Of a DNA stretch of 64,000 nt, positions 18,094 to 43,028 are shown one piece after another. The notes beneath the pieces are model-generated. The model worked only from the letters and a program-made list of their open reading frames with translations. It ran no database searches and had not been told where the DNA came from. Every line of letters begins with the position of its first letter. Position 1 is the first letter of the stretch. The stretch comes from a virus. Position numbers and translations under genes: made by a program. The stretch lies in the IMG/VR virus record IMGVR_UViG_3300037418_001469. The stretch is one strand, 5' to 3'.

Positions 18094-18486
18094 TCACTTT
18101 TTATTTAGTTTTTGTTCAATTTTACGGACGCAATCATTTACGTTTTTATTAATCTCAGAACCACTAAAACGTAACACAGACTTATAGCCATTCTTGTATA
18201 GATAAGAACTCCTCCTTTTATCGTACTTTTTTTGGTCGGGGGAAGAATGAAAAGCCTTACCATCGCACTCAATAGCAATATTACCTATAGTCATATCTAT
18301 ATAGTAGGGACCACACCTAGTCTGAGATTTAACTTTATATCCTTTTCTTGCTAATGCATTATATAACTTCCACTCTATAGGAGATTCACATTTAGGTTTT
18401 GTATCTGTTTCTTTATATAATATCCATGCAGGGACAAGCAGTGTAGTTAGGAACATAACCACAAGTGATAAATTACCAACACCCAT
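18094..18486 (-). CDS. Membrane-anchored DUF559/Vsr-like endonuclease
   Basis: N-terminal TM helix; ESPIE..L, GPYYID, AIECDG..FH, LRFSGSEI. Confidence 0.8.
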   Translation of the reverse strand: MGVGNLSLVVMFLTTLLVPAWILYKETDTKPKCESPIEWKLYNALARKGYKVKSQTRCGPYYIDMTIGNIAIECDGKAFHSSPDQKKYDKRRSSYLYKNGYKSVLRFSGSEINKNVNDCVRKIEQKLNKK

Positions 18487-19904
18487 ATATAGTCTCCTTT
18501 ATTTATTTTCCTTTATTGCCTTTAAAATTATTTTTAAATTTCTCCTCATTTCAACAAGAATCCAAATAGTTTGTAGATTAGCAAGAAACCACCCTGCTAT
18601 ATGAGACCAAGCAAAGAATGTTATTCGTTCTTTATCACTCGATAACTTTAAAAATCGTTTCATAAATTTCCTCATAGTAACCTCCTTATTAAATATTAAT
18701 AAGTGTTAATAACCAACCATAAGCAACTATATCTGTTTATGCTTAGCTATGTATTTTATTATACCCCACTTAGTCTTGCTTGTCTATGGTACTTAGTTAT
18801 GACTAACTAGGTCTCTAACTAGTCCATCCCAAGAGCTACCTATATAGGACGAGATGCAACTTCCAAAAACTAACGAGTTCTTTACTCGTTCCTCGTGCGC
18901 CCTCTACCTGCGCTCGGTCTCCCCCACGGAACTACCAAGCTATATCCTTTAGCCTGCTAAAGAGTGGTCTTTTTCTATACGACTTGTCCCTATACTATAT
19001 ATTATACCTATATTATGACACAATATACACCCTTTTATACATGTTTTTCGTTCGGAAAATGTAGAATATTTTTTCCAAAATAGGGCACGATTTTTTTTCC
19101 AAAAAGTAGTCCGAATTTTTTTTCAATTCCTATAATCAGGAATGGAATTTTTTCTATATAAGTGTAATTTTACACCCCCTAGGTACTGGATTTTTTTTCC
19201 AATAAGGCTGAAAAGTCTATAATGTATGGGTTAGGGTGCGTATATCCCACTTCGTGGGTTTTTTGGTCTTTCATTTGAATATACCCCTACCCTACCCAAA
19301 AAGACGGGAAATATTGCAGGAAATAATTCCTATAACCTATGTTATGGGAATTAAGTCAATTGTACACAATATAATTTTAGACTATAAAATCGTACTCACA
19401 ATTGTATTAATCAAAAAAACTTGATATGTAACCTAATATGCTTAGTTTAACCAATAAACAAATACCATTAGTTTACCCAATTAACAAATACAAAATTGAA
19501 TTGTGCACAATTGATTCAAACAGCTAGAACTCTATGTAGTTTACACATACATAGAAAATCTAGGTAAGTTTGTGAATGTTTTCACATACCTATATCTTTT
19601 ATTATAATAGAAAGAACATGAAATCAAGTAAATTTACTTGACAGTAAAACGTAGTAATATCAAGGCTTTGACGAGTTTCTTCCTATATAGAAAAAAGGAC
19701 CAAAAAAGAATCTTTAAAAAAGATGAAAAAATGAGCAAATAGGAGGAAATAGGAGATAATAGCAGAAAAACATGCTTTTTTAAGCTAAAACGGGCTAATA
19801 TGAACTTATTTGGAGTTTTACTTATTTTGCTCTAGGTATTATGATTGCATTGTAAGATAAATTAAATAAAGTTAAGGTTTGGTTGAGGGGGTGCTTTTCT
19901 ACCC

Positions 19905-20302
19905 TTCAAAAAAGTTTTTAAAAAAGGTTGCATATTTTCCTACAACCTGCGTATAATGATAGTAGCATCACAATTGATAATCAAATAGCTTATTCTTCTC
20001 ACACCTTCTATCTAGTATAGAGGGGATGGACATAACGACGTTTTATAGTCAGGTGAATGTGAGAAAAAACTTTTTAAAAAAAGTGGAATAAAGTTCTTGA
20101 CTATCACATAAGCTATACTGTAAGATGATTATAGTACCACACTAACTTAATACGCTTTACCTTACAGGGATTGTCTCCCCTACATTAACCTTCTATATAG
20201 AGGGTATCTCCAAAAAGGCTTAGTAAGAAACTTAAAAAACTTTTTGGAAAGATTTTAAAATAACGCTTGACAGTTTAAAACTTAACCTTTACAATTAGGG
20301 TA
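19905..20302 (+). promoter_or_regulatory. Three tandem strong sigmaA promoters with A/T-tract UP elements
   Basis: TTGCAT-18-TATAAT (19928), TTGACT-18-TAAGAT (20097), TTGACA-17-TACAAT (20267); each preceded by AAAAA(G/C)TTTTT. Confidence 0.75.
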
Positions 20303-21260
20303 GCTTCAAAATTAACGCTTGACAGTGAATAAACAGGGTAGTGAGAAAAACCCTACTATATTGTTCATAAGTGGTAACAAGCAACCCACTATAAAAATAG
20401 GCTTGCATGAGTTCCTTGACAAGAAAATAGTTCAAAGAAGACTTACACCCTTCATGTTTTAAAGAGGGTTCGGGTCTTGTCTAACTGATACTCGCTGAAA
20501 AAGGTGATTCTTGCCTAATCTAAGTGAGTGCCAATGGGTTAGCTAATTAGTCAGATATCATGCTTGCATAGGTGATGGAAGATGTCCAAATTACAGGTGA
20601 AACTAAGGGTTTTTGACTTAGCAGGTTCTCTGGAAACGGGCTTGGTGAGTGGGTCAACAATAACCGCAATGACTAAAAGGTGGAACCCAAGCAATTCCGA
20701 GCAAAGCGACTTGATTCTAAGGTTACGAACTAGCTTGGATAGTAAGCTATACACCCCACACTGTATCACCTGAAAAGGTGGGCAGTCTGTGACTTAAAAG
20801 TAAGGGGTGAGAACTTGGCAAGGTTAGGCAGGGACGGGCGACAAGGGTAGCAAAGCGAATCTAAGAACTATTTGACAATACAGGTTAACTTAAAACTTTC
20901 TTAGGGAATATTTTATGTTTGTTGTTGAAAGTTGAAAGTTGAAAGGTTAACCGCTAAAAGTTGGGTATAGCATATCCAAGTGGGAAAAGTAACCATTCAC
21001 AATATGTGCGGTTACAATGTAGGATAGCGAGAGCGAATCCAAGGTATAGCAACCTATACCATAATTAAGGTTGTAAATTTCGGATTGTTAAGCAAGTCGA
21101 GTAGTCCAAACAATGAGTCCCTAGGGATTACCATTACAGGCACACTGAAAAAGGTTAGTCTCCTTATTAGGATAAACACTTTAGTAGGTTAGACTGTAAA
21201 GGCAAACAAGGTACTATACTCACTGGAGCACATGGTACGACTTGCTTGATTGAATCTGAT
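20302..21260 (+). ncRNA. Candidate large ornate ncRNA (~0.85-0.95 kb, GOLLD/ROOL size class)
   Basis: No credible ORF, raised GC, many nested helices with G-U pairs (20425-33/20865-73; 20508-21/20821-34; 21080-99/21238-59), repeated CUGAAAAG and GNRA-like loops. Confidence 0.72.
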
Positions 21261-21328
21261 ACGGTTTTATTCGGGGGTTTATCCCTTGAATAATGCTAAT
21301 AGTCGAATATAAAACTATAACTTAGGAG

Positions 21329-21649
21329 TTGTTGAAATTGAGAAAAATTGCTAACGATACAAAATTAAACTTTAAGAAAGATTTATCTAACATTGAATTA
21401 ATGGGAATTGAACATATCTTAAACTCGTTTGAAACTGATATTGAATCTGAGGTATTAATGGCTGAGGATTACGGTTTAGCTTATACGAGTTCATCATCAT
21501 ATGCTATGTATAATGTTACGGAACATGTAGTATTTGATGGTTTAACTGTTAGTCACTTCTCTATTACTGATAATGATATGCTTATTATGGTATGTACTGA
21601 TGATGATGAGAATAATCATTGTTATGAAATAGAGGGTTCGGATTACTAG
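21329..21649 (+). CDS. Acidic hypothetical protein inside stalk 1
   Basis: AGGAG RBS with TTG start; D/E-rich. Confidence 0.6.
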   Translation: MLKLRKIANDTKLNFKKDLSNIELMGIEHILNSFETDIESEVLMAEDYGLAYTSSSSYAMYNVTEHVVFDGLTVSHFSITDNDMLIMVCTDDDENNHCYEIEGSDY

Positions 21650-21765
21650 TCCTTTACCTTTTCCGCCAAATTAAAATCTAACATTCGACTGTTAGTGTTA
21701 TTCAAGGGATAACATTATCCTCTGAATAATGGTTATAGTCGAAAAATAAATCATAATTAGAAAGG

Positions 21766-22216
21766 TTGTTGAATATGTTTAACAGTAATCAAATTAAAGT
21801 AGTTAGGGAATATTTAGAAAAACGTTTTAATACAATGAATGTAACGTATATTAAATCAGGTGCTAGTGGCATACTATTCCAAGTGAATGAATTTGAGTTA
21901 GTAGTTATTATTGATACTGATTATAATGTTACATTGGGTTATACAAAATATGATGAAGTTCACACTATTAAAGGTGGTTACTCATTAGGGTTATTAGAAA
22001 ATGCATTGAAAGAAACTGAATGTGCTTATGCTTAAATGGTTAGTGATGATTACAGTCTTATTTTTGATTCTTGTACTTGGGTTGGTTAATGATGCATTAT
22101 CAGTATACAGTGTTACTCATTATATAGATGTTGTGTTTGTATCTACTATAGGAGTTGCTTTACTATTTGTTTATGTTGTATCTGTATTTGTTACAGTGTT
22201 GATTCACAAAAATTAA
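21766..22216 (+). CDS. Two hypothetical proteins inside stalk 2 (21766-22035; 22022-22216, 2 TM)
   Basis: ORF track, RBS, hydrophobicity. Confidence 0.55.
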
Positions 22217-22350
22217 TTCCTTTCTTTTCCCGCCCGCAAAATTTAAGTTCTAAACTTTAAATTAAAATCATATAATCGACTATAACCGTTATTCAGTGGA
22301 TAACATTCACTGTTAGAATCAAAAAATAAATCATAGGAGCGTGCTTATTT

Positions 22351-23664
22351 ATGAAAAAATCAGATTTTCTAGAAATGAAAGTTCAAAAATCAGGGGAGTC
22401 TTTAAAGGGAATTGCAAGTCTTATTACTCAGTCTTTTGAGGTTGAAGCAATGACAAAAAGTGATGAAGATGTTTTATCTCGCAAATTAGATTCAATTGGC
22501 AAAGGTTTAGCAAGGGATAAAAGTATTAACGATGGTAATGGTTGGAATGATGATGTACACCATGATGTTTCATTAACTTCTTATACTCATGATAATGGTG
22601 GTCTATATGGTACTGAAACAAGTTCTTCACCTATTGATATCTGCAATTGGTTTGAATTGAAAAACTATTTAAATCAAATATTAGACACTTATTTACAAGC
22701 TAGTGGGAATAAAGTTCATTTTACTGTTAGAGGTTCTATGCATGTACACAATACATTATCATATACTTATGATGAGGATTACAACCTTCTTAGTGCTGTA
22801 AAATTAGACATTAACGGTGTCTACCATAATGTGGCTCGTTTTATCCTTAAGTTTATGCCCGTTATGAAATGGTTGGTAATGACTGATAGAAAAGGTGCTC
22901 GTGGGGTTCGTGGTTCATCATATGGTGATAAATTTGATAATGATAGATTATTTTCTTGGTGGTCTGAATATGAGGGTTCTATAGATACTGATAGCACATA
23001 CAGACTAACTCATTTTGATAGAAACTCATGTTTTCGAGTTATGCAAGCTAATTGCTTACACTATGAAAATCGCTTAGCAGATTGTAGTTTTAACGCTACA
23101 CACATTGGTATGTGGTTGTCAATCAATCGTGCAATAACTCTTATGGGTATTGATTTTTCAAGGAATGGTTATTTGTTCAATATCAATGGTGATGATGTAG
23201 AATTATCTAGAGACTTGATGTATCAACATTCTAGAGGTTATAAATACGTTGGCAAAGAATCTATCGAAATGCTATATAAACAGTTTGTTGGATATCTTGC
23301 AAAATATCTTAAAATTATTGGTTCACTAGAAACTATTGAAGTGATGGATAAGTTAATCAAGTGTCCTATTTCAGAATACTTAAATGAGAACAATATTACT
23401 GAGGAATATTGGAATCTAGAGATTATAGAAAAAGTGTTTAATACTAGGAATCGTGCTAGTGATACGGTTCTAAGAGATAGATTCTTAGAAGGTATCAAGG
23501 CTATGCTTATTCCTAATGCGGATAGCTTGAACGACTTCTTAGATAATACTGCAAGTTATCTAGAGGTAGAATCTAAAAAGGTTAAATCATTATATCAGAT
23601 GTTCAAACGTGAAAACGTGGATATTGAGTTCTTAGGTGGTAGACTTGTATATCTTGGGGATTAA
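22351..23664 (+). CDS. Putative COOH-NH2 amidoligase, divergent paralog 1
   Basis: SFEVE, HDVSL, ETSSSP, GSMHVH, HYENRL; C-terminal extension shared with 39658. Confidence 0.62.
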   Translation: MKKSDFLEMKVQKSGESLKGIASLITQSFEVEAMTKSDEDVLSRKLDSIGKGLARDKSINDGNGWNDDVHHDVSLTSYTHDNGGLYGTETSSSPIDICNWFELKNYLNQILDTYLQASGNKVHFTVRGSMHVHNTLSYTYDEDYNLLSAVKLDINGVYHNVARFILKFMPVMKWLVMTDRKGARGVRGSSYGDKFDNDRLFSWWSEYEGSIDTDSTYRLTHFDRNSCFRVMQANCLHYENRLADCSFNATHIGMWLSINRAITLMGIDFSRNGYLFNINGDDVELSRDLMYQHSRGYKYVGKESIEMLYKQFVGYLAKYLKIIGSLETIEVMDKLIKCPISEYLNENNITEEYWNLEIIEKVFNTRNRASDTVLRDRFLEGIKAMLIPNADSLNDFLDNTASYLEVESKKVKSLYQMFKRENVDIEFLGGRLVYLGD

Positions 23665-27188: not shown

Positions 27189-27530
27189 ATCTTAAGGAGT
27201 GAGTAGCTTTGGAGAAGAAGGAAATGCAAGGATTTAAAGGAGGAAGCAAAATGAGATTAGTTAAGATGACAATTCATTGGATAATGATGAAGTGGTATTT
27301 TCAATTATGGCATAAGGTTTCAAGAATGACCAATCAAAAATGGCATGACAAATTTTACTATTATGCAGAAACATTGATAAAAATGTGAAAAAACGGGTAC
27401 CAAAAAATTTTAAAAAATTTGGTACCTTTTACTTTTTGACTCGTAAAGTTTTAAGTTGACCATTGACAATTGTTTTCTTATGGTGTATGCTTAGGATAGT
27501 CAAACAAACTAAATTTAAGGAGTGGTTGTA

Positions 27531-28748
27531 ATGTGTAATGATAAAAAACGTACTTATGGAATCGAACTAGAGGGTTATACAGATGAGAATATTAGGGGTA
27601 ATCATATAGGTCAGGGTTGGAAAGTTATTGAAGATGGTTCTTTAAATGATGGAACAGATGAATGTTGTGATTGTGATGGTAGAGGTCACAATGAATGTTA
27701 TCGTTGTGATGGTAGAGGTAATGTTGATTGTGATGATTGTTGCGGTAGTGGTGAAGTTCCTTGCGGTGAGTGTGATTGCACAGGATATATAGAATGCCAT
27801 CATTGTGATGGTGAAGGCGGTAGTTGGGTATCTGATGATGAAGGTGATGAAGATTGGGTAGAATGTGAACATTGTGAAGGCAATAAAACATTAGATTGTA
27901 ATGATTGTAATGGTAGTGGGTATACTACCTGTGAAACTTGTGATGGTGACGGTGAAATTGAATGTGAATCTTGTGATGGTAATGGAAGTTACGAGTGTGA
28001 ATCTTGTGATGGTCGTGGTTCTCATGGTGATGGTGAATACTATGGTGTTGAATGTGTGAGTGGTATCTTAACAGAAGGTGATTATGAGCCTATTAATCAT
28101 ATATTTGACTATATCGAACGCTATGATTGGACTATTGAAGATGATTGCGGTACTCATGTTCATATTGGCGGTGATGATTTAAATGAGAAAGACTTGTCTA
28201 AACTTTATATTCTTGCTAATATTCTTGAGCCTGCTATTTATGGTTCACTTCCTAGTAATCGTATTAATGGCACTTATGCAAAACACACACAGAGAGATAT
28301 GGCAGAATATTTAATTGGAAAAGGAGAGGATATTACATTACAACAATTAGCTGATTATTATTATGGATATAGCGTTAGATTAAACGGACACTTTCAAAAA
28401 TATGATAGCGCTAGATATTATGGTTTAAATTTAAACTCTTGGTTCTATCGTAAGACAATTGAGTTTAGATACTTTGAAGGTGCTATCAATAGAGAGAAAG
28501 CTAATAATTGGATAGAGTTGTGCATTAAGCTAGTAGACTTTGCAAAATATACTACCTTTGAGCAGTTAATGGTTATAGGCAAAGACTTCTATTTGATAGA
28601 TAACCTACAAGAATTACTAGACAAAACAGAAGAATTATTAGGTTTAGAGTATAATATTGGAGCATATAGTAACTACGCATATCAGGAATCAAAGCATAAT
28701 GTAGCAAGTCAATTCAGAGATACTCACATTATTACTCGTGCAGTATAA
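27531..28748 (+). CDS. Putative amidoligase paralog 2 with a DnaJ-like Zn-finger insertion
   Basis: TYGIELE, EDGSL, ten CxxCxGxG-type repeats, GVECVS, CGTHVH, RYYGLN, TIEFRYF. Confidence 0.82.
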   Translation: MCNDKKRTYGIELEGYTDENIRGNHIGQGWKVIEDGSLNDGTDECCDCDGRGHNECYRCDGRGNVDCDDCCGSGEVPCGECDCTGYIECHHCDGEGGSWVSDDEGDEDWVECEHCEGNKTLDCNDCNGSGYTTCETCDGDGEIECESCDGNGSYECESCDGRGSHGDGEYYGVECVSGILTEGDYEPINHIFDYIERYDWTIEDDCGTHVHIGGDDLNEKDLSKLYILANILEPAIYGSLPSNRINGTYAKHTQRDMAEYLIGKGEDITLQQLADYYYGYSVRLNGHFQKYDSARYYGLNLNSWFYRKTIEFRYFEGAINREKANNWIELCIKLVDFAKYTTFEQLMVIGKDFYLIDNLQELLDKTEELLGLEYNIGAYSNYAYQESKHNVASQFRDTHIITRAV

Positions 28749-28881
28749 TAATTGACTATTAGGTGAAGGGGGGATTGTCCCCCTTTCCTAGTATAATCTA
28801 AAATTAAACTATTAAAAATCCTTGTTATTTACTAGGAGGTTTAGTATAATATGTATATACATTAAATTAGGAGGTAGAATT

Positions 28882-29274
28882 ATGGAAAGTAATTATCGTA
28901 CTATTGAGGTGAAGTTGGGCAATTATATTAAGAGATTTGAAATGAGAGATACTTATATTGGTACTTTTGTAGTGGACAATAAGCTATTTAATGTTATTGG
29001 CACTCAACATTCAATGGAAAGGCTAGACGAACGTAACATAAACAAGTATCATATTTTGTCTAGCATTGTCGGATTAGGTGAAAAACTTGCGACACACAAT
29101 AATAGTGGTAAGCACATTATTATTAGTGACGAAAAGAAAGATATCTCTACTATCTTTACAATCGAAAATTTCACTGTAGTATTAATTACTGTGTTGGACA
29201 GAGGACAGATGTATATTTCTCCCAATGTTACACATAAGCGGACAGTCATTGAAACGTATGATAATGTTGGTTAA
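28882..29274 (+). CDS. Possible BECR/DUF4258-like ribonuclease-fold protein
   Basis: TQHSMERLDERNI and C-terminal VLITV strand. Confidence 0.4.
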   Translation: MESNYRTIEVKLGNYIKRFEMRDTYIGTFVVDNKLFNVIGTQHSMERLDERNINKYHILSSIVGLGEKLATHNNSGKHIIISDEKKDISTIFTIENFTVVLITVLDRGQMYISPNVTHKRTVIETYDNVG

Positions 29275-29376
29275 TTAATTAGTGATTGGTTGCCTAGAGT
29301 TGATTATTTGATTCTAGGCAAGGGGTGACTAATTAAAAACTAGTCTAAAATTAGATTACAAGGGAGATTGATAGGT

Positions 29377-30093
29377 ATGACATTTAAAATTGAGGGACAA
29401 TGTGTAGCTTGTGAAAATATGGCAGTAGATGAAGTACTAGATGAGACTATGGTAGAATATTTGAGTGTGTGTGACGATTGCTACAAAGAAGTATTTATCA
29501 ATGTTGCTAATAGTGGGGAGCAATATTTCTTTGAGTGGGCAGAAGAAATGTATGGTACGGAAAAAGCAGTAGGACTAACAAGTGAAATTTTTGGTCAAGA
29601 GTCTACTATTAGATTAGGAGTTGAAGATATGGGTAAAAAGCGGAAAAGAAAAGAAAATGAAAGAATGATAACTATGTTTACTTATGGCATATTAAAATAT
29701 CCTTACAACATTAAACGTGAAGGCGGTATAAATATAGTCGAAAATTCGTTTATAAGAGGACATAAAATGCATCTTTATGCTAGTTCGTTCCCTATTACTA
29801 GAATGACTAATGATGATACAGATTTTGTTTATGGCACACTATTTGAAGTACCTGAAAGTCAAGTATTATACTCTTATGATTTTACAGAAGGATATAACCC
29901 TAAAGCACACCCTTCTATGAATATGTATAATAGAATAGAGGTTGAAGTAGTTAAGCCTAATGGTGAAATTGTAATTGCTAATATGTATTATGCTAATCAA
30001 AGACAGTTTGCCCAACATTTGAATAATAACACATGGATTCCTACAGGAAATTTTGATGATAGACAAATGGCTAAGTCATACAAAAGGAAGTGA
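29377..30093 (+). CDS. Gamma-glutamylcyclotransferase (AIG2-like); possible internal start at ~29628
   Basis: FTYGILK, VYGTLFEV, YDFTEGY, YNRIEV, ANMYY. Confidence 0.8.
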   Translation: MTFKIEGQCVACENMAVDEVLDETMVEYLSVCDDCYKEVFINVANSGEQYFFEWAEEMYGTEKAVGLTSEIFGQESTIRLGVEDMGKKRKRKENERMITMFTYGILKYPYNIKREGGINIVENSFIRGHKMHLYASSFPITRMTNDDTDFVYGTLFEVPESQVLYSYDFTEGYNPKAHPSMNMYNRIEVEVVKPNGEIVIANMYYANQRQFAQHLNNNTWIPTGNFDDRQMAKSYKRK

Positions 30094-30336
30094 TGCTATG
30101 AAAGATTGTCTAGGTCTTTTCTTACTTGGACTTGGTGGAATATATTTATTCTTCTTATTGATTGTTTGTAACCTATAAAATTAAACTATAAACTTTTAGT
30201 TGACAATTGAAAGTGAGGTATGCTATGATTGAGGTAGCTAATACAGTAGTGATTGCAGTTTGTCTTTGTTGGTTCGGTTCTTATATTGTAATAATAGACT
30301 ATAAGGCAAACAAAAAATTGAAAGAGGGTAGATAAT

Positions 30337-31784
30337 ATGTCAATTAAATTAAACATTGGCGATTCTGTTTATGTAGATAACAATGAAACGTTTATAGTCG
30401 AAAAAAGAACTGTAGGGTATGCACTTGTTGGTTTAAGCGGTGAGACAGTAGCTAAATTTCCTCACCTTGCACAAATACCACATTATCTCAATAGCATATA
30501 TGATACAGTGGAAATAATCAAAAATAAGACTGTAAGTGAGAAAACTAAGGTAGAATATAGTATTATAACAGATGAATTAGAATATGTCGATGGCTTTGAT
30601 GATACTATCTATATGGCACTACAGAACATTGGCAAGATTAAAGGAATGAACATAGAAAAAATGTATCGTGAAGGTATTCTTACTAATGAGATGTTAGCTG
30701 AGATTCGTGTTTTTGTAGTCGAATATTTGAATAAAGTTACAGATAATACTATTGACCTTTCTCCACCTGAAAAAGAATACAAATTAGGTGATGAAGTAAC
30801 CGTATATTATGAAGATACTGTTCAAAATGCTACTATTATATGGTTGTCTGATGAAGAGAAGTATGGTCTATTACTTTACGGTGAGTTTACAGTCGAATAT
30901 TCTACTGCTAATGCAGATTGTGATAGTCCAACTAATTATATCTTGTGGCTACAAAGAAACTATGGTTTAAATATAGAGTAGGAAATTAAACTATTGGAGG
31001 AGATAGTATGAGTATTGAAAATCAGAAAAGATTTTATATTGACTTCAATTCAATTAGAATGTGCTATCCATATGAAATAAGTAAAAGAATTAATGATTTT
31101 GGAGTGTTAGAACAATATAAAGACAAGAAATATACAATGGCAGAGATAAATCAAATAGTTGCAGATTTAATAATGAAGAATCCATATATTAGTAATTCTA
31201 TGTTCATTAAAATTTGTGTTATGAGTGGCATGGGTTATCATCATATATTAGACATTAAGAACTATAATTATAGCAAGCAAGAGCGAACAGATAAAGAGGT
31301 TAGGTTTCAATATTAGAGTAGAATTTTCTACTCTTGGGATTTCAATTTAGTATTATACCTTAAGGAGTGATTACTATGGTCAAATATTCTACCAATATAG
31401 GTGTTACTGTTGTTTGTCTTTCTCCTATTGAAAAAGGTGATGTTATTAATGTTGTTGACAAGAAAGGAAATTCTGTTACTAAGTATGTGGAAAGTATTAA
31501 AGATAATCACTTAGAACTAGAAAGTTACCATATTCAATCAGTCATAATCAAACATTAAACTTTAAGGAGGTGATAACATGTCTCACATAGGAGATGGTAA
31601 GTTGTTTGCTATCGGTGATGCTTTGATGCAATTACAAAAACGCACATGGTGTCATATATCAAGTCGTAGAGAGACAGAAATTCAATTAATTCTTGAGATT
31701 GTTCATAAATTAGATTATAACGTAGAAGTGGACACAACATTAGATGGAGTAACTCGAATCTTTATATCGAATTACCTTGACTAA
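30337..31784 (+). CDS. Hypothetical proteins (30337-30981, 31008-31316, ~31376-31558, 31578-31784)
   Basis: ORF track with RBSs. Confidence 0.55.
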
Positions 31785-31914
31785 AATGTTAAGGTTGTGG
31801 TAAGATATAATAGTAAACAGTAAGGGATAATGCACCTAGAAAATAAAAAAACAGTTGACAAATGAAAGTTGAATGTGGTAAGATTAAACTAACAAATATT
31901 AAGGAGTGTTGTAA

Positions 31915-32814
31915 ATGAATGAAAAGTTAAAGGTGACACGCACATTAGGATTTGAAATTGAGTGCTTTGCAGATGTACCTTCTCGAACAGATAGTTGGGG
32001 TGACACATATGTTGATTATGATGATGTATCTATTCGTAATTGCGAAGTTAGTACTGATGGTTCATTATATGGAGGTAGCGGTACTCCATTAGAAGCAAAG
32101 ACAGACCCTATTAAAAATCTTAATATTGTAGAAGAAGTTTATAAAGAGTTAAGCGGAATGGATATGAACGTAAATAAAACCTGTGGTCTACATATTCATG
32201 TAGATACTAGCGACTACACAATTGAGGATAAAGCAAAGTTGTTACGTTTTGGAGCAGGAATTGAATTACTAATGTTCGCATTAGTTGACAAGTCTCGTCA
32301 AGGAAACGAATATACAGAAAAACTTCATAAAGGTTGGAGAAAGTTATTTCGTTCCAATTTTATGACGCAAAGTATTCCTTTTGATTCTTTTAACAATTTT
32401 AGTCAATTAGAAAGATATATACAGAATAACTCTACACATAGAGATGCTAGACATATTTGGAATGGTAGATACCAATGGTTAAATGCAGTAGTTAGTCATT
32501 GTCCTACCGCAGAGTTTAGAATCTTTAGCGCTACTACTGATTATAAACAAGCACAAAAGTTTGGCATGTTAGCCTATCATATCGTAGAAACAATCAAAAA
32601 TTCTACTATAGAACAAGTAAGGTTCATTATTCAATCTATCTATCAAAGTCAATCAGTGGACGAAATGCTTGACAGACTATTCGACTCTATTGGATTAGAC
32701 GGTGAGTTCAGACCTGAAATTTTAAATGATAAAATGGCTGAATATATTGACAATAAGTTCTGCAAGCCTATTCGTGAGCGTGAATTAGTAGGCGGTGAGC
32801 AACGAGCAGTTTAA
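31915..32814 (+). CDS. Putative amidoligase paralog 3
   Basis: TLGFEIE, TDGSL, EAKTDP, CGLHIH, RYQWLN, TAEFRIF. Confidence 0.85.
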   Translation: MNEKLKVTRTLGFEIECFADVPSRTDSWGDTYVDYDDVSIRNCEVSTDGSLYGGSGTPLEAKTDPIKNLNIVEEVYKELSGMDMNVNKTCGLHIHVDTSDYTIEDKAKLLRFGAGIELLMFALVDKSRQGNEYTEKLHKGWRKLFRSNFMTQSIPFDSFNNFSQLERYIQNNSTHRDARHIWNGRYQWLNAVVSHCPTAEFRIFSATTDYKQAQKFGMLAYHIVETIKNSTIEQVRFIIQSIYQSQSVDEMLDRLFDSIGLDGEFRPEILNDKMAEYIDNKFCKPIRERELVGGEQRAV

Positions 32815-32860
32815 AAAAGTTGTTGACAGTTGAAAGTTGATGTGCTAAGATAGTATTACA

Positions 32861-33007
32861 GTAAGCAATCCTCTAGGGAGGGACGGACACCCTCCTCTCA
32901 TGAAGCCCATCCTCCTTGAGTAAGAGGAAAATTATTTTAAATTGGTAAGGGGACTACAGGAGATTGACTGACTATCTATCTCTTGCCTTGCCTAGAGGAT
33001 TGCTTAC
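32861..33007 (+). ncRNA. Structured ~147-nt leader or sRNA
   Basis: Perfect 17-bp closing stem just downstream of the promoter at 32823, with internal hairpins. Confidence 0.55.
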
Positions 33008-33040
33008 AATAAAATAATAGACTATTGGAGGTTATTGTGA

Positions 33041-33940
33041 ATGAGAATGAAGAAGGACTTATTAAAAGGTATTGAACTAGGTAGAACTATTGGAGTAGAA
33101 GTAGAAGGTTACACTGGAATGTATCGTTCAATGGTTAACAACGGGGTAAGACATAGTTCAACTAAATATGATGGCAGTCTAGGACAGTCTAGAGCTAGTC
33201 AAGGTATTGAAGTAGTAACTAAGCCTATTAAACAACTAGATTTGTTAGATGAAGTATTTGAGGATATCACTAAGTATCAGTGGAATGTTGGCAGAGGAAA
33301 GGCAGGCACTCATGTACATGTTGATGCTAGAGACTACAACGTATTAGACAGAATTAAGATGGCAGTATTTATGAATCTGATTGAAAAGGCTATGTTTTTA
33401 ATGGTGAAAAAGTCTAGATGGAGTCGCAACAGCTATGGAAGAAATACTTATTGCAGACCTGTTAGTGGTGGTTGGAAAGACTTATTAAATAAGCTAAATA
33501 CGGACTATCCTGAATTTGACATAACCAAATACGGAAATATCGGACCTTTGCAGTATGATATTATTAACAAACGTAATCTGAACTATAACAGACTAATCAC
33601 TCCTAATACTATTCGCTATCAGTTTGTGAATATATGGTCATCTAGCCACAATACAATTGAATTTAGAATCTTTCATGCTATCCGTTCGGCAAAAGATGCT
33701 AAGCTATTCTCATTAATGGCATACCACCTAGTAGAAATAGTCAAACATTCTACTCTAGAACACTTAGAGTATCTTGCTGATGAAATCATGAATCAATCAA
33801 CTAGTGCTGAAAACATGCTAGAAAGATTTTCTCAAGCTATTGGACTTGATTTTATTCCCAAGATTTACAATGCTGATTTAAAAGCTATAATAGATAGAGA
33901 TAAGCGTGTCGGTGCAAGAACTTCATTTGTTGCGGTATAA
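33041..33940 (+). CDS. Putative amidoligase paralog 4
   Basis: TIGVEVE, YDGSL, GIEVVTKP, AGTHVH, RYQFVN, TIEFRIF. Confidence 0.85.
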   Translation: MRMKKDLLKGIELGRTIGVEVEGYTGMYRSMVNNGVRHSSTKYDGSLGQSRASQGIEVVTKPIKQLDLLDEVFEDITKYQWNVGRGKAGTHVHVDARDYNVLDRIKMAVFMNLIEKAMFLMVKKSRWSRNSYGRNTYCRPVSGGWKDLLNKLNTDYPEFDITKYGNIGPLQYDIINKRNLNYNRLITPNTIRYQFVNIWSSSHNTIEFRIFHAIRSAKDAKLFSLMAYHLVEIVKHSTLEHLEYLADEIMNQSTSAENMLERFSQAIGLDFIPKIYNADLKAIIDRDKRVGARTSFVAV

Positions 33941-34718
33941 TATTAAACTCTACCCTTCGGGGTAGGGTTAGGGAACTAAATTATAAAATTAAATTATAAG
34001 AAAGGTAGTGGACACCATGAACGAACAGATGTATAATAGGTATGTACAGTTGATTAATAGACGCTACAAATATGATAACACTAATATGAAAAGATATGGG
34101 CTAGTGCTAAAACTTATGGCTTGGCAATACAATGTAGGTAGAAACAAAGAGGAGGTAATGTAAAATGTACGTTATTCAAAACAGACAAAAGGGTGAGGGC
34201 TTCTATTGTGGAATCTTGTATCATGGTGAGGTTGGTTATTATACTAGTTTTTTTCCAAACCTCAACTTCAAAGAGGTAAAGAAATATGACACTAAAGAAC
34301 AAGCTAAATTCGACTTCTATTATCTAGTGGACATTTGGAATGTTGACCTTGGATTCCTTGAAATAGTACCTGTTGAATTGGTGGTAAAAACAGATGAATA
34401 ATGACTATATACTATTGTTCATGATGATAGCACTTCTTGTAGGTTCATTAATATATAGGGTGTGGAAAGACGAACAAGATTTTAAGAAGGCACACAATAA
34501 GCGTAAAAAGAAAAAGTTTTGGATATAATACAATAATAGACTTTAAGGAGGTGATTCTTATGGCAATTAATCTTAAGAAAAAACCTTTCGCAAATTTAAC
34601 TAAGAAAGTTTTAAAAAAGTAGTTGACAGTTGATAACTGATATGATACAATTAAGAAGTGGTAAGGGAGAGGTTATTCTCTCCCACAAAAAAATCTAAAA
34701 TAAAAGGATGATGTGAAT

Positions 34719-34736
34719 ATGTGTGGAATCAAGTAG
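34719..34736 (+). pseudogene. Truncated GATase 5' end (MCGIK*)
   Basis: Follows a duplicate of the promoter, leader and RBS of gene 35416. Confidence 0.65.
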
Positions 34737-34812
34737 AGCATAAAGTTTCCTCCAATGAGAAGAATATATAATAACGTGGAATTAAATATTATATTCTTAG
34801 GAGGAATTAGAA

Positions 34813-35319
34813 ATGAGCAAAGGTAAACAGTTAAAAAGCAAAGAAGAAGTAGTCGAAAGATTTTGGTCTTATGTAGATAAGGCAGATGGTTGTTGGAATT
34901 GGTTAGGAAGTAAGAATAACAAAGGCTATGGTCAATATCCAACGGTAGTTAAGCATGAAATATTCGACTCTAAGCTAGTACACAGAATAAGCTACTATCT
35001 TAATAACGGTGCTTATGATAGAAAATTAGATGTTTGTCATAAGTGTGATAATCCTTCATGTGTAAATCCTAGTCATTTATTCTTAGGTACTAGGTCTGAA
35101 AACATGATAGATTGTGTAGAAAAAGATAGGCATGATACTAGTAAGAAAGCTAAAGGCGAAAGAAGTGGTAGAGCAAAACTAGATTGGACTAAGGTTAGAG
35201 AGATTAGAGAGAAGTATGCTAAGGGTAATACTTCAACTAGAAAGTTAGCTACAGAATATGGTGTAGACAACAAGGCTATACATGCTATAGTTCAAAACAG
35301 AACTTGGATTGAAAAATAA
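34813..35319 (+). mobile_element. HNH homing endonuclease with C-terminal HTH
   Basis: CWNWLG...GYG, VHRISY, VCHKCDNPSCVNPSHLFLGTRSEN. Confidence 0.9.
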
Positions 35320-35415
35320 CAGTTGACAATTGAAAGTTGATATGGTAAACTTAAGAAGTAGTGAGGGGGCTAACCTCCTCCTACTAAAAAATCTAAAATA
35401 AAAGGATGATGTGGA

Positions 35416-36654
35416 ATGTGCGGTATAAACGGAATGGTTTTCTTAAAAGGTGTAAAACGTGATGCTCAAATGATGGCTAAAGTACGCTTTATCTTTGATG
35501 AATTAATGGTTGAGACTATGGATAGGGGCGAACATGCTACTGGATTAGCTAGCTTTAAGCGTGATGGAAGTTACGAATTTCATAAGAAAAATATCAATGC
35601 AGATAAAATGACTACAGAAGATGAAAAATATCGTGAAATTGTTGCTAACTTTGACGGTGAAGATACTAGTGTAGTAATCGCTCATACTCGCTACATGACT
35701 CAAGGAACAGCAACAAACATGGATAATAATCACCCATTTGATATTGGCAATATCGTCGGACTACATAATGGTTCGGCAAAGAATGACAATATTCTATTCA
35801 ATGAATATAAAGATAAGTTTACTCGTATTGGTCAAGTTGACAGTGAAATTGTGTTTCAATTAATTAATCACTATAACCAAGATGATATTACATTAAAAGG
35901 CTTAACAAGTGCATTGGAGGATACTAAGTTAAGAGGACTATTTGCACTAGCTTTTGTCCACAAGAACAATCCTAATATGTTACACTTAGTTAAGCAAGAA
36001 AAACCTATGTACATTGCTTATTGGAAAGAGGCAGGAATTGTTATTTTCAACTCGATTGACGACTACATTATCAAGGCTTTCCGTAAATTAGAGCGTATAG
36101 GATTCTCATTCGGACTAAAAGACACCAAGCAAAGTGTAGAGATTAAGAAAGTTACTGATGATAGATACTTCACTGTTAATGCTGATGCTGAAACAGTAGC
36201 AGATGCTATTAGTGATGAAGTTCGTTTGTATATCGAATCTTCTTCTTACACTTATTACAAAAGTGGTGTAACAACTACAACTACTACCACTAATAAGACC
36301 ACTAAGGCAACTGTTGAAGGTAAGCGTGAAAAAGTAACTGCTACAGATAGCAAAGGTTTAGTGTTGCAAGGTGAAATTGACACTGCTACAGGTGAGGTTA
36401 TTATTTGGTCTAATGATGATATTAATGATGCTGATGATGGTAGTGGTCTAAATGATGTTGAGGAATTGTCTTGCTTTGAGTGTAATGAATTAATCACAGA
36501 AACAGATATAGATGCTAGCTACAATCGTGACAATCCAAAAGACGAGTGCATTTGTTTCGATTGCTACACTGAAATCATGAACACATATGTAAATGATATG
36601 CTCGATGAAAGAAAGGAAGAATCTGTTGATTGCGATGGTCAAAAGATAGGCTAA
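35416..36654 (+). CDS. Class II (Ntn) glutamine amidotransferase 1
   Basis: N-terminal MCGI, RGEHATG, HTRYMTQG, NNHPF, HNG, VDSE. Confidence 0.9.
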   Translation: MCGINGMVFLKGVKRDAQMMAKVRFIFDELMVETMDRGEHATGLASFKRDGSYEFHKKNINADKMTTEDEKYREIVANFDGEDTSVVIAHTRYMTQGTATNMDNNHPFDIGNIVGLHNGSAKNDNILFNEYKDKFTRIGQVDSEIVFQLINHYNQDDITLKGLTSALEDTKLRGLFALAFVHKNNPNMLHLVKQEKPMYIAYWKEAGIVIFNSIDDYIIKAFRKLERIGFSFGLKDTKQSVEIKKVTDDRYFTVNADAETVADAISDEVRLYIESSSYTYYKSGVTTTTTTTNKTTKATVEGKREKVTATDSKGLVLQGEIDTATGEVIIWSNDDINDADDGSGLNDVEELSCFECNELITETDIDASYNRDNPKDECICFDCYTEIMNTYVNDMLDERKEESVDCDGQKIG

Positions 36655-36712
36655 TGTGGAGGGAGTAATCCTTCCTTTGGGATTTAAAATTATACTATAA
36701 AGAGGTGGTGCT

Positions 36713-37933
36713 ATGATACACTTCCATAAGTACAAAGAAGTTGATAGGTACTTAATGTTTACAGGTGAAGATGCAGTTATCTATAAGTGTGAAAAATGCA
36801 ACAAAGAAAAGGTTAAATACACATTAGAGACTTATATTGGTTTGAAAGATGCACTACCGTATAAAGAGTGGTTAAAATCTAAAAATATATCATAAGGAGT
36901 GGTGTTTATGAAATGGATAGCCTTAGTTAAAATAACAGATTGGCAAATGTTACATTCATGGCATAGCGGAAGTTGTGACACATACAAGTCTAAAGCTAAC
37001 TTGGAAACAAAAGAACAAGCAGAAGAATTTATTAATGAAGTGGAAAAACTTTATGAAAGTCATTACAATATCCATCGTAGCGACAGTGATAAATATAGAT
37101 TAAAACCATGTATTCTAAGCTATGATGAATCTCAAAGCGAGAATGTGGAGAACTTCTTTAGATACATGTAATCTAAAATTAAACTATAAGGAGTGTTGAA
37201 TATGATATTAGAGAATAGGTTTGGTTTATTTGTAGACGATAAGAAAATAATTATTGAAACTAATTGTGATGAAGAAGTTTTTGAAAAAGTTGTTAAATTG
37301 GTTGTTGACCATGCTATGTACTATAACATAGAACAAGTGCTTGATGTAATTAAATCATTAGGTTATGAAGCTGAGTATCTTGATGATAGCACTAATAAAG
37401 ATTTTGATTTTTAATCTAAAATTATACTATAAGGAGTGCGTGATATGATGGAGTTTACTTATAAGATGAATATATTTGGAGAAAATGACAGCTATATGAT
37501 ACAAACAGATTGTCCACTTGATACATTCAGAAAGGCAGTAGATTTCGTGAGATGCGTAAAAGATTATGATGGTTATACATTGTTAGAGGTACTAAAAGTG
37601 ACAGGTTATAATGCTGAATTTTTTGAGCCTGATAATATTACTGGAACATTTAGTTTTTAATCTAAAATTAAACTATAAGGAGTTGATAATATGACTTTAA
37701 GAGAGATAATTAAAAATCAAATATTAGATTCTACAAATGAACTAAATGTAGAACTAAGTAATGAAGAACTAAGGATTGCAATAGCAGGAGTTGAACATTG
37801 TGTCAGTGAATGTATGGCTGATTCAGTAAGTGATGCAATTTCAGGTGTTCTTTATGATAGAAAATTAGATTCTAATTTCCCACAAGATATGCCTGATTCA
37901 TTTAAAAATTTCATAAAAGAAAGGAGCAAATAA
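36713..37933 (+). CDS. Small hypothetical proteins, including paralogs ~37202-37414 and ~37445-37660
   Basis: Bounded by near-identical TAATCTAAAATTA(A/T)ACTATAAGGAGT at 37169, 37412, 37658. Confidence 0.6.
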
Positions 37934-38006
37934 AAATGACTTTTAAAATAACTGTTGACAATACAAAACTGATACTGTATGATGTTATTAAAGGAGGAAA
38001 TACAAC

Positions 38007-38270
38007 ATGAACAACATGACATTCGCAGATTATATCAAGATTAAACGTGCAGAAAAGAATCTTTCAAGAAGTGAAATGGCAAGGAGAGCAGGCTTTACTC
38101 CCCAATATGCTATGGATATTGAAAGAGGTAATATGATACCTACAGAAGATAAAATTGAAAGCCTTGTTAATGTTCTTGAATTAGATGAAAGATTAGCTTT
38201 TCAATTAGCTGACAAAATTCCTTTAAGAATATATGAGCAAGCTAAACAGAAATTCTTTGGTGAGGAGTGA
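38007..38270 (+). CDS. XRE-family HTH regulator
   Basis: RAEKNLSRSEMARRAGFTPQYAMDIERG; own promoter at 37955. Confidence 0.85.
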   Translation: MNNMTFADYIKIKRAEKNLSRSEMARRAGFTPQYAMDIERGNMIPTEDKIESLVNVLELDERLAFQLADKIPLRIYEQAKQKFFGEE

Positions 38271-38274
38271 TTAA

Positions 38275-39644
38275 ATGCCTGTATCATTGGAAAAAGATTT
38301 TCCATTTCGATTAGAGCCACAAGTAATATGTAGTTGCGGTAAAATTATCTATGAAATAGATACAATGTTTTGCTCAGGTTGTGGTGATGTAACATGTGAG
38401 AATTGCTACACTGATTGTTTTGATTGCGGTAAGATGTATTGTAGTAATTGCTCTGAAAACACTTCACAATGCCTAAGATGTAACATAAACAGTAATATAA
38501 AAGTACCTGATGAAAAAGCATTTCTAGTTATCAATGGAGTTACAACACCAATTAAGAACAGTGCTTTTATGATACAAAAGACCTCACTTGTTAATGCTAG
38601 AGACATTAGGCTTACTCTTAATGGAGTAGAGTATAGATATACTTATCGTTCATTGACACAAACAGAAAATGATAAAATGATATATGATTACCACTTATAT
38701 TTTGAAGAAGTAAAACAAGTAGCGAATATGAACGATGAAGAATTTGCAATAAGTGTGAGAAATGCTTTAAGAAGTTTCAATGAAACGCATGGATTAGCAG
38801 ATGAATACGATGATTATAGCACATTAGGTTGGTGATAATATGTCAAAAGGGTACTATGATTGCTATGGATATTTTGCAATAGACCGTCCTCATAACACCT
38901 ACCCGATAAAAAATGTTGAGCGTCACTTAGAGTCTATTCTTTCACTAAAGAAGGGTGACGTTCTTAATCTTAAAGGAATTGGTGATTTACAAGTCATAAA
39001 TTTAAATATTGATGAATATAATTATCGTGACAAAGGTAAAGATTGTCTTTATCAAGAGATTGGAATAGTATGTATAACAATATAATATTAAACCTTAGTT
39101 GAGGGGGTTGTCTTGTGCTACATGTGGTTAGTATGAAAGTGTATGGCATAGATGAAAATGGTGACGATGAAAGGCAATGGTATAAGATTAAGAACGGGGA
39201 GGAAGTTCTTAATATGGAATTATGTAGCGGTGATAAAATTCTAATAGATGGCATAGGCAACCTAGAAATACTCGGACTTCACTACAAAAGCGAAGAAACA
39301 GGCACTCACCCTTACAAGTCACTAGAAATAACTTGTGGGTTAATTACAAACGAATAATTTAAAATTAAACTATAAAAAGTAGTTGACAGTTTAAAGTTGA
39401 CTATGTTATACTTAAAGTACAGTAAGCGAAGGAGCTGATTGGTATGATAGGTAATTCTAAATTCAACATGTGGACTATAACATATATAAACAAAAAAGGA
39501 TTACACTCAAATATTGAATGTCAGGATAAGGCAGAACTCTCTATTGAATTGTCTTACTTACGAGAAAACGGTCAAGATATGGAATACGTCAATGTATTTC
39601 CTCCAAAAAGTAACCTTACTTATGATGAATTATTAAACTATTAA
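38275..39644 (+). CDS. Hypothetical proteins (Cys-rich 38275-38835; paralogs 38840-39085 and ~39133-39357; 39444-39644)
   Basis: ORF track; shared GD..L.GIG.L.(V/I) motif. Confidence 0.55.
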
Positions 39645-39657
39645 GGAGTGTTGTTCA

Positions 39658-40959
39658 ATGAGAATGTTTGATTACTTACTGTTTAACGATAGATTGGGTA
39701 AATTATCCACTAGAGATTGTGAATATTGGCAAATGATGTTCCGTAAGATTCTAAAAGTTGGTGAAGAGTTCGAAGTGCAAGCACCTAGAAACAAAGACTT
39801 AGATGATGTGTTTGATACTTTTAATCGTGCTTTTAATCCTTCTCGCTCTATTCATCATCATGGTCAACATGGTGTCAAAGAAGTAATGGGTGATGGTTCT
39901 GTACCTCATGGTGTAGAAGTAGTAACAGTAGGCAAACGGTTTGATTGGAAAACATTCTATCAAATGAATGAGCATATCATGGATACATTCGCTAAAAATG
40001 ATATTCAAACTTCACATCATACAGGAATGCATATCCACTTACTAGCAGGATATACTAACAATGACATGACAGAATTAGAACGTAATGTACCTGAAATTAT
40101 TTTAGCTAACTTTTATCAACTTCACCGTATCTTTGCACCTGAACTATATTGGATTGCTAGTGGTGGAAAAGATGATTATGCTATCACTCGATATATGTTA
40201 TTTAGACGACCACCATTTGACTATTCGGCTACCAATACTGCTATGAGCATTATCAGAGAAGAAATGAACGAACGTTATGGTAAATATCAGATGTTCAACA
40301 TGAATCATTCTAGATTCAGTAGGAGAGAGTTGTCTACTTTCCATGTTGAGATTAGACACCCTGACACACACTTGTCTCCTGCGGTATCAACAGCCTTAGT
40401 TGCCCTAGAAGTAGCATTGTTGCATAAAGCAATCGACCTATCTCAATGCGGTATTATTTCTATTAAACAAGATGAGTACGACTTTAAGAAAGCTATCTTT
40501 GATAAGTTTGTCAATATGGGTACTGGTGACAGAGAATCTGATAGTACCGATTTAGACCAAGATGATATTGAGAACTTGCAATTGCGTACTAGTGCAATGA
40601 TTCGTTGGTTAAAAGGAGAAATCTATAATTTAAATCCAATTGCCTATGACATTCTTAAAAAGATTGCGGTTACTCCATCATCATTAATGAGAATCAACGG
40701 AATGTCTTGGAGTCAAATTGATGAAAAGATTTATACTCCACGAATGATTGACCGAGAGAATGTTGATAAGCTACTAGAAATGATTGTTCTTCAACAAATT
40801 ACAGATTGTGGTAATGGTGGAGAATGGATTGATAAAGCTAGTGAACGCTTGCGACTTCCAATAGAAAAGACCAATCAACTTCTAAAAGATATTCAACTAG
40901 AGAAAGTAATGGTCTTTGATGATGAACTAGGCTCAATGTTGATGAAACAAATAGTCTAA
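39658..40959 (+). CDS. Putative amidoligase paralog 5
   Basis: VGEEFE, GDGSV, GVEVVT, TGMHIH, KYQMFN, HVEIRHP. Confidence 0.75.
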   Translation: MRMFDYLLFNDRLGKLSTRDCEYWQMMFRKILKVGEEFEVQAPRNKDLDDVFDTFNRAFNPSRSIHHHGQHGVKEVMGDGSVPHGVEVVTVGKRFDWKTFYQMNEHIMDTFAKNDIQTSHHTGMHIHLLAGYTNNDMTELERNVPEIILANFYQLHRIFAPELYWIASGGKDDYAITRYMLFRRPPFDYSATNTAMSIIREEMNERYGKYQMFNMNHSRFSRRELSTFHVEIRHPDTHLSPAVSTALVALEVALLHKAIDLSQCGIISIKQDEYDFKKAIFDKFVNMGTGDRESDSTDLDQDDIENLQLRTSAMIRWLKGEIYNLNPIAYDILKKIAVTPSSLMRINGMSWSQIDEKIYTPRMIDRENVDKLLEMIVLQQITDCGNGGEWIDKASERLRLPIEKTNQLLKDIQLEKVMVFDDELGSMLMKQIV

Positions 40960-41210
40960 TATTATATCGCAATTAAAGAGGGCTATGCCCAAGCAGATTA
41001 ACTTCTCCAAGTCGCTATCCCTCTTTAATATATAATCAAAAATTCGATTGTAGGAGTGTGTATCATGAGTGAGATTAGAGACAGAATAGAAGAACTGGAA
41101 AATAGAAAAAGCAGTATGGAAAGCATATTAGATTCAATTAATGATGAATTGAATGAACTGTATCAAGTAGAGAGTGAATTAGAATATAATAATAGACTGT
41201 AGGTGATACT

Positions 41211-41780
41211 ATGTTTATTGCTAAAGGAACGAAAGTAAAAGTTGGAAACTCACAGGTAGTACTAAGTCAAGAAACTGGATACTATCAACTAATTGAGCAA
41301 GTAGAAAGAATATATCCAATTTTAAAAGTAGTAGGTTTTAGATTTATTAGCAAAGACACAATGGTTTTATTGACAACAGAAAAAGAAGGTGATAGTGTGG
41401 TAATCCCAAAAGGAACGACTGTTTCATTTGTTGCTAATGGAGAACTTCAAAAGTATGAATTAGAAATGAATGCTACTATTGATATGGTCGAAGAGTCTAT
41501 CTTAGAATGGTTTGAAGGCTATAGAGAAGAGTCTTTATGCTTCAACGGTATAAACTACATGTTTCCTAATATAGCGTCAGGATATGCGATTATTGAAGGC
41601 AAGATGGCAGAACGTTTTGAAGAAGAAAATAAAAAAACATACTTTTCAATGAAAGATGTAAAAAATGTACTTACGCTTGGGGTAAGAAAAGGTGACACAT
41701 TGCACCTAAAAGGTTACTCTAGCTTTAAAGTATCTAGTGTTGACTTTGGCAATAATATGATTTGCCTTTCACTTGAGTAA
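41211..41780 (+). CDS. Hypothetical protein
   Basis: ORF; internal repeat (I/P)KGT.V. Confidence 0.55.
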   Translation: MFIAKGTKVKVGNSQVVLSQETGYYQLIEQVERIYPILKVVGFRFISKDTMVLLTTEKEGDSVVIPKGTTVSFVANGELQKYELEMNATIDMVEESILEWFEGYREESLCFNGINYMFPNIASGYAIIEGKMAERFEEENKKTYFSMKDVKNVLTLGVRKGDTLHLKGYSSFKVSSVDFGNNMICLSLE

Positions 41781-41875
41781 AAAATTTAAAAAAGTAGTTG
41801 ACAACTGACATTGGATAGTGTAATATAAAGGTATAGCAAAAAACAAAATTTGAAAAACGAAAGAGGTAATGTGAA

Positions 41876-42994: not shown

Positions 42995-43028
42995 TCTAAT
43001 AATATATCTTAAAGGAGCGTGTTGTGTA

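Follow-up and report, generated by a model that had tools for sequence, protein, structure and literature searches.

Evidence for a new family of large structured RNAs heading the early genes of uncultured soil phages

To our knowledge, very few bacterial or phage RNAs near 1 kb have a conserved structure comparable to the one described here, and the large structured RNAs that have been studied (ribosomal RNA (rRNA), group II introns, OLE, GOLLD and ROOL) each revealed new RNA biology. In this report, we analyzed a 64,000-nucleotide (nt) stretch of viral DNA (IMG/VR record IMGVR_UViG_3300037418_001469; hereafter the window), for which a preliminary description made from the sequence alone had proposed a large structured phage non-coding RNA at 20302-21260. 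Our main finding is that this proposal holds: conservation and abundant compensatory changes lead us to conclude, with high confidence, that the region encodes a conserved, structured, plus-strand RNA of a new family. Among the closest described systems, GOLLD and ROOL form cages, as seen by cryo-electron microscopy, and GOLLD combines a conserved part with a variable one (10.1101/2024.12.08.627333). Phage K (Kayvirus, Herelleviridae) makes lnc002, a 1154-nt early long non-coding RNA that has its own early promoter and the highest phage read count, and that its authors likened to GOLLD and ROOL (PMC9241854).

Comparison of the window with the 4227 covariance models of Rfam 15 gave no match at gathering thresholds (cmscan), and a search of positions 19800-21700 at E ≤ 10 with relaxed filters gave no GOLLD or ROOL, only chance-level matches with E of at least 1; group I and II introns, OLE, HEARO and raiA were unmatched as well. 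At this sensitivity, the RNA is therefore not GOLLD, ROOL, an intron, RNase P, transfer-messenger RNA, 6S RNA or a member of the other described families. Moreover, ARAGORN found no transfer RNA (tRNA) gene in the window, in agreement with the preliminary description, which had left the choice between a new RNA and an unusual GOLLD or ROOL member. With neither an Rfam match nor a tRNA neighbourhood, the former stands and the latter does not. Like GOLLD and ROOL (0.6-0.8 kb or more), this RNA is large, ornate and encoded by a phage or prophage, with candidate pseudoknots and many purine-rich loops; unlike them, it has no covariance-model similarity, no adjoining tRNAs, and a position at the head of an early operon. 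As for lnc002, it too is an early RNA of roughly 1 kb that is not translated (early expression being predicted here) and comes from a large phage, in that case with a Gram-positive host, and it belongs to no Rfam family at E ≤ 0.1, the only matches there being the three adjacent tRNAs. It differs from our RNA in G+C content and tRNA neighbourhood (Table 1), and neither nhmmer (four profiles) nor ten motif searches revealed any similarity between the two.

The source phage is large and uncultured (recorded contig up to 173.6 kb, related contigs up to 191 kb) and occurs in soil and rhizosphere DNA metagenomes. Four metagenomes that contain part of it yielded only short contigs, which showed one difference, in a single contig. 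Since DNA searches of GenBank phages found nothing (no match among 50,697 records by blastn in distant mode), two proteins encoded just downstream, of 106 and 437 amino acids (aa), were used as anchors: their relatives were collected among 5.8 billion proteins, and the corresponding contigs were fetched and searched with nhmmer. The region was thereby found in syntenic position in eight further uncultured phage lineages, namely L006 (with L007 and L008), L019 (with L020 and L021), L005, L023, L018 (with L017), L022, L011, which is a partial copy, and L009, in which only the 3' end is present. Over aligned columns, 64-74% of nucleotides are identical between the RNA and these relatives, against 67-71% for the flanking genes, which shows that the RNA sequence is conserved to about the same degree as its neighbours. 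Protein and pattern searches of IMG/VR yielded a single distant contig (L016), which is without the RNA, and two contigs with one pattern match each in metagenome and genome collections (L014 and L015) were rejected, as nhmmer confirmed neither. In Bacillus phages PJN02, FADO and 2S-4, whose copies of the 106-aa gene are 45-48% identical, blastn and nhmmer detected nothing similar to the RNA at the syntenic position. The picture that emerges is that of a modular RNA family with members of about 0.8 to 1.2 kb, found at the head of the rightward early genes in uncultured phages from soil and rhizosphere, a clade that is distant kin to large Bacillus phages.

The region lacks a credible open reading frame (ORF). 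No ORF of at least 80 aa occurs over 2.8 kb (18487-21328), between a leftward gene and the small 106-aa gene (21329-21649), and the longest ORFs within 20302-21260 are of 63 and 72 aa. The 63-aa ORF (20582-20773) was rejected as a gene because L011 lacks the region of its start and the frame is interrupted by indels in the comparison with L006. In the five long-contig lineages (L005, L006, L018, L019 and L023), the largest called gene in the stretch does not exceed 43 aa. The G+C content is 0.38-0.44 inside the region versus 0.27-0.33 in the flanks, and the GC skew is positive inside. Both the absence of a credible ORF and the elevated G+C content had been noted in the preliminary description.

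Strong evidence for an RNA comes from compensatory changes. Folding of the plus strand gave z = -3.85, and of the minus strand z = -2.69, relative to 20 shuffles. A four-lineage alignment covering 20330-20960 (A12, analyzed with RNAalifold) has 56 predicted pairs, 30 of which show compensatory changes on both sides, and 95.8% of its cells are paired. When partners were slid by one to three columns, these values dropped to 1-4 compensatory pairs and 29-43% of cells, and none of 500 shuffles attained any of the five observed measures. G-U pairs account for 35 of 216 paired cells (about 16%), and the plus strand is therefore the RNA strand. Individual domains behave similarly, with compensatory changes in 13 of 35 pairs in the central domain (alignment A8) and in four of nine in a module named after its CUGAAAA sequence (A6), where one position of the outer stem has five pair types among five lineages. 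In a 3' module (A7), the helices GGUAUAG/CUAUACC and CAAC/GUUG both co-vary, and jointly they would fit a candidate H-type pseudoknot. Thus the collection of homologs and covariation analysis called for in the preliminary description found what is expected of a structured non-coding RNA, that is, more compensatory changes than in the controls and no reading frame that is conserved.

The 5' half contains a two-part long-range closing duplex, the strands of which lie about 400 nt apart, and which co-varies in five lineages. When duplex energies were compared in a five by five matrix, the cognate partner came out on top in each of the five rows and in four columns out of five, with a mean of -18.3 kcal/mol for cognate versus -10.3 for non-cognate combinations. 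Part of its 5' strand (20447-52) can alternatively pair locally with 20464-69, and both partners change together between lineages, which suggests a programmed exchange of partners during transcription. Upstream, the 5' leader contains a candidate H-type pseudoknot whose second stem reads GCGAC/GUUGC in L006. Short modules recur within the RNA, as had been proposed: CTGAAAARG is present in three copies within 1 kb, compared with 1.66 expected in the whole window, and GGRUAGC...GCGAAUC is seen at 20845 and 21022. All four helices of the preliminary description are in the minimum-free-energy fold, and three are supported by comparison. Indeed, the 20425/20865 helix is part of the co-varying closing duplex, the nested domain at 20752-20809 finds support in A8 and A12, and a long stem such as the one at 21080-99/21238-59 closes the 3' domain in every lineage, with differing sequences. 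The exception is the 14-bp helix 20508-21/20821-34, which is unsupported because it conflicts with the local CUGAAAA module, whose stems co-vary.

The 3' half is a lineage-variable set of modules and not one conserved fold, so that this part of the initial picture had to be revised. Its first modules (20955-21075) are common to L019, L018 and L022, and the stem-closed domain that follows is found in every lineage with unrelated sequences. A covariance model of the central subdomain (R1), even when run with filters off, matches none but the four lineages that seeded it (the window, L006, L011 and L005); no single full-length fold is therefore universal.

Around the RNA are signals that recall a bacterial rRNA operon. 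The predicted promoters are of sigma-A type and lie in tandem, each with an A/T-rich tract upstream. The three that had been proposed to feed the region were recovered, P2 and P3 by a promoter scan and P1 by reading, together with a fourth -35 box (Table 1). Homologs have comparable arrays, but the sequences of their promoter zones cannot be aligned. Between 19900 and 20300 the promoters are spaced in units of 100-170 nt, each comprising an upstream tract rich in A/T and a small hairpin (CCUUCUAUCUAGUAUAGAGGGG near 20004, CCUUCUAUAUAGAGGG near 20189).

Shortly after the predicted RNA start lies GTTCCTTGACAA, at 20411, the sole exact copy of this motif in the window. Every lineage with the 5' domain, five in all, retains it as GUUCYUUGAMAA between variable flanks, and it is the best-conserved short element of that domain. 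As an internal promoter it was rejected, because no lineage has a -10 at suitable spacing. The sequence GTTCTTTGAAAACT is a conserved block of the 16S-23S spacer that Bacillus spacers carry too. It has been used as a primer for the detection of mollicutes by polymerase chain reaction (PMC3019172), and the phage motif agrees with GUUCUUUGAAAA, from that primer, at 10-11 of 12 positions, bearing in mind that the boxA of the phage host may differ. In B. subtilis rrn leaders, AUGAUCUUUGAAA directly follows the 5' hairpin and binds NusB (PMC13753749); here the phage motif agrees at 8-10 of 13 positions, the consensus being that of B. subtilis and not that of the phage host. The resemblance to the Bacillus rrn boxA pointed out in the preliminary description thus appears good but partial.

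Two inverted repeats follow the RNA. The left-arm box of the first recurs in homologous loci, and from its sequence and position this arm likely marks the 3' boundary of the RNA or a processing site. The repeats over 21279-22303 resemble stalks for RNase III processing and would suit the cutting of a long early transcript; none of them surrounds the RNA in full. As a promoter, the repeated TTGAATAATGCT...AGTCGAA box was rejected, because it is an arm of the long inverted repeat.

Table 1. Features of the RNA locus and of the two compared phage loci
Feature	Sequence	Position	Strand	Remarks
DUF559/MTES_1575 endonuclease-like gene	Window	18094-18486	-	Left border of gene-free zone; likewise in L005, L018, L023
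P1, promoter-like, TTGCAT-18-TATAAT	Window	19928..19957	+	By eye; A/T-rich UP-like tract upstream; under the -35 threshold of the scan
P2, promoter-like, TTGACT-18-TAAGAT	Window	20097..20126	+	Promoter scan; TG precedes -10
P3, promoter-like, TTGACA-17-TACAAT, 11/12	Window	20267..20295	+	Promoter scan; predicted RNA start near 20302
Structured non-coding RNA	Window	20302..21278	+	About 0.98 kb; ends inferred from P3 and first stalk arm
Fourth -35, TTGACA	Window	20319..20348	+	Alignments A1, A4, A12; proximal promoter of homologs sits there; -10 weak in this phage
5' leader, candidate H-type pseudoknot, AGUGG/CCACU and CAAGC/GCUUG	Window	20370..20408	+	By eye from aligned sequences
boxA-like element GUUCCUUGACAA	Window	20411..20422	+	Kept as GUUCYUUGAMAA in 5 lineages
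Long-range closing duplex, 5' strand	Window	20425..20452	+	Just after boxA-like motif
CUGAAAA module	Window	20490..20529	+	Outer stem 20490-96/23-29; variable inner hairpin; conserved strands GAAAA, UAAUCUA
Central multi-helix domain	Window	20528..20821	+	Closed by 20528-34/20815-21; A8, A12
Long-range closing duplex, 3' strand, AAGGGU ... GAACUAUUU	Window	20838..20876	+	About 400 nt downstream of 5' strand
3' modules	Window	20955..21075	+	Hairpin UUGGGU/ACCCAA with AAGUGGGAAAA; hairpin GGAUAGCGAGAGCGAAUCC; candidate pseudoknot 21043-21073
Variable 3' domain	Window	21080..21259	+	Closed by 7+12-bp stem
Left arm of long inverted repeat	Window	21279..21323	+	Partner 21668-21712; 45 nt, 80% complementary; brackets 106-aa gene
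Second inverted repeat	Window	21715-42 / 22276-303		28 nt, 93% complementary; brackets next genes
lnc002	Phage K (L024)	37679-38832	-	29% G+C; adjoins three tRNA genes
Gene-free gap	phiEco32 (L025)	32788-34731

We propose, at somewhat better than even chance, that the locus is an early unit resembling an rRNA operon that would release the RNA as a functional RNA; processing, release and function are read here from the sequence and by analogy. Tandem host-type promoters would drive heavy early transcription, and the boxA-like element, lying early in the transcript, would load NusB and S10. The polymerase would then cross 1 kb of untranslated, hairpin-rich RNA and run on into the early genes. 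Meanwhile a local hairpin would hold the 5' strand of the long-range duplex until its distant partner is made, closing the central domain. The long stems at its 3' side and those bracketing the next genes would be cut by an RNase III-type enzyme, giving a discrete, stable RNA, which may finally work in trans as a scaffold or as a sponge for a host factor, this last step being the least certain of the proposal.

The main competitor, which we consider clearly less probable, is that the kilobase is only a cis-acting leader, a 5' untranslated region whose folds set downstream antitermination, processing, mRNA stability or timing, with no separate function as an RNA. It lies on the same strand as the early genes and is contiguous with them, with no intrinsic terminator after the RNA; a boxA-like element is present, and one strand has two alternative partners, both co-varying, as in a switch. 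What argues for a released RNA instead is that about 1 kb with dozens of co-varying pairs, candidate pseudoknots and lineage-variable modules far exceeds the needs of known antitermination or attenuation leaders, that the stalk-like repeats and stem-closed 3' domain suggest excision, and that the comparable RNA of phage K accumulates as the top transcript (PMC9241854). Two further explanations seem very improbable. A highly divergent GOLLD or ROOL RNA, forming a multimeric RNA cage, would account for the similar size, the ornate fold and the phage origin, and GOLLD is also part conserved and part variable (10.1101/2024.12.08.627333); the lack of a cmscan match to either family at E ≤ 10, even with relaxed filters, the absence of tRNA genes and the early-operon-head position speak against it. 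Selection at the DNA level (a replication origin, a packaging site or an array of protein-binding sites) would suit a region next to divergently transcribed DNA that has repeats and palindromes. It does not explain why compensatory changes keep pairing, why pairing collapses in the slid controls, or why positions that are G-U on the plus strand would be A-C mismatches on the other. The related idea of a decayed gene, covered by the same low probability, meets with the lack of called genes above 43 aa in the long-contig lineages and with indels that are not multiples of three.

Several points nevertheless weigh against our proposal of a new RNA family made by an rRNA-operon-like unit. There is no universal full-length fold, the central subdomain model being restricted to four lineages, and only four to five lineages can be aligned per domain, so that the statistical weight of any single pair is low. 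For the RNA's expression, termini, processing and stability we have predictions from sequence, and a trans-acting RNA and an elaborate cis-acting leader fit the evidence alike. Lastly, the boxA-like motif matches the B. subtilis leader consensus at only eight to ten of the 13 positions and contains TTGACA.

Two host and phage systems help to place the proposed unit. The leader of a bacterial rRNA operon likewise has strong tandem promoters with A/T-rich upstream tracts, then hairpins followed by boxA, which NusB and S10 bind in the rRNA operon (here a conserved boxA-like 12-mer), and the operon produces a long, untranslated, structured RNA, with long stems, the stalks at which RNase III cuts, bracketing segments of the transcript, as is predicted here; the B. 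subtilis version is described in PMC13753749. It differs in that the product of the phage unit is not rRNA, the boxA match is partial, and protein genes are on the same transcript. The early region of phage T7 comprises the A1-A3 promoters, boxA and RNase III sites, and its early polycistronic RNA is cut at long stems. The present locus would share the tandem host promoters, a boxA-like element and long stems around the early transcript, but no kilobase-sized structured RNA precedes T7 gene 0.3.

A third comparison involves phiEco32, in which, as in this phage, amidoligase and glutamine-amidotransferase genes lie downstream of a gene-free, promoter-rich early region. These genes span 27522-44111 in the window and 52-60 kb in phiEco32. 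A gamma-glutamyl cyclotransferase is encoded in phiEco32 and, on our side, only in the relative L023, not in the window. The phiEco32-like coliphages differ in the phylum of their host and have no detectable similarity in RNA sequence; nhmmer with five profiles gave no match to the RNA in phiEco32 (40000-77554).

As for the surrounding genes, those of the phage include thymidylate synthase, a clamp loader, NAMPT, amidoligases and glutamine amidotransferases. The 106-aa gene 3' of the RNA belongs to phrog_4874 and is related, at 36-48% identity, to genes of large Bacillus phages (Zhangjivirus PJN02, FADO and Bastillevirinae). The 437-aa protein (22351-23664) is conserved in 29 metagenomic clusters with the invariant motifs NG[WF]NxDxHxD and H[FYW]ENR..D. 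It matches no Pfam or PHROG family and has no tblastn match in the GenBank phages searched above; it is probably an uncharacterised enzyme of this phage clade. A second conserved gene-free block (18760-19445) is common to L018, L019, L006, L023 and L005 (nhmmer E of about 1e-22 to 1e-54). On its minus strand are a conserved terminator-like hairpin with a U-run (18890-18872) and an invariant CUUUAG/CUAAAG hairpin, and the block may correspond to a small early RNA, or a leader, directed leftward.

As the predicted first product of the early promoters, the RNA can be assigned to a specific step of the infection programme. Together with a recognisable, boxA-like host signal, this makes the question of what large phage RNAs do experimentally concrete. 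More speculatively, we raise the doubtful but possible idea that the RNA represents a novel class of large, ornate RNAs of phages, which would act in trans, perhaps by assembling into particles or as sponges for a host RNA-binding factor. The RNA would be made by a unit that copies the host rRNA operon in its tandem promoters, boxA, guided folding and stalk processing, a design at which unrelated phages, those with Gram-positive hosts (this clade) and those with Gram-negative ones (phiEco32-like), would have arrived independently. If it is true that both kinds of phage build such RNAs with the machinery of rRNA operons, this would be a general, so far undescribed strategy of host takeover.
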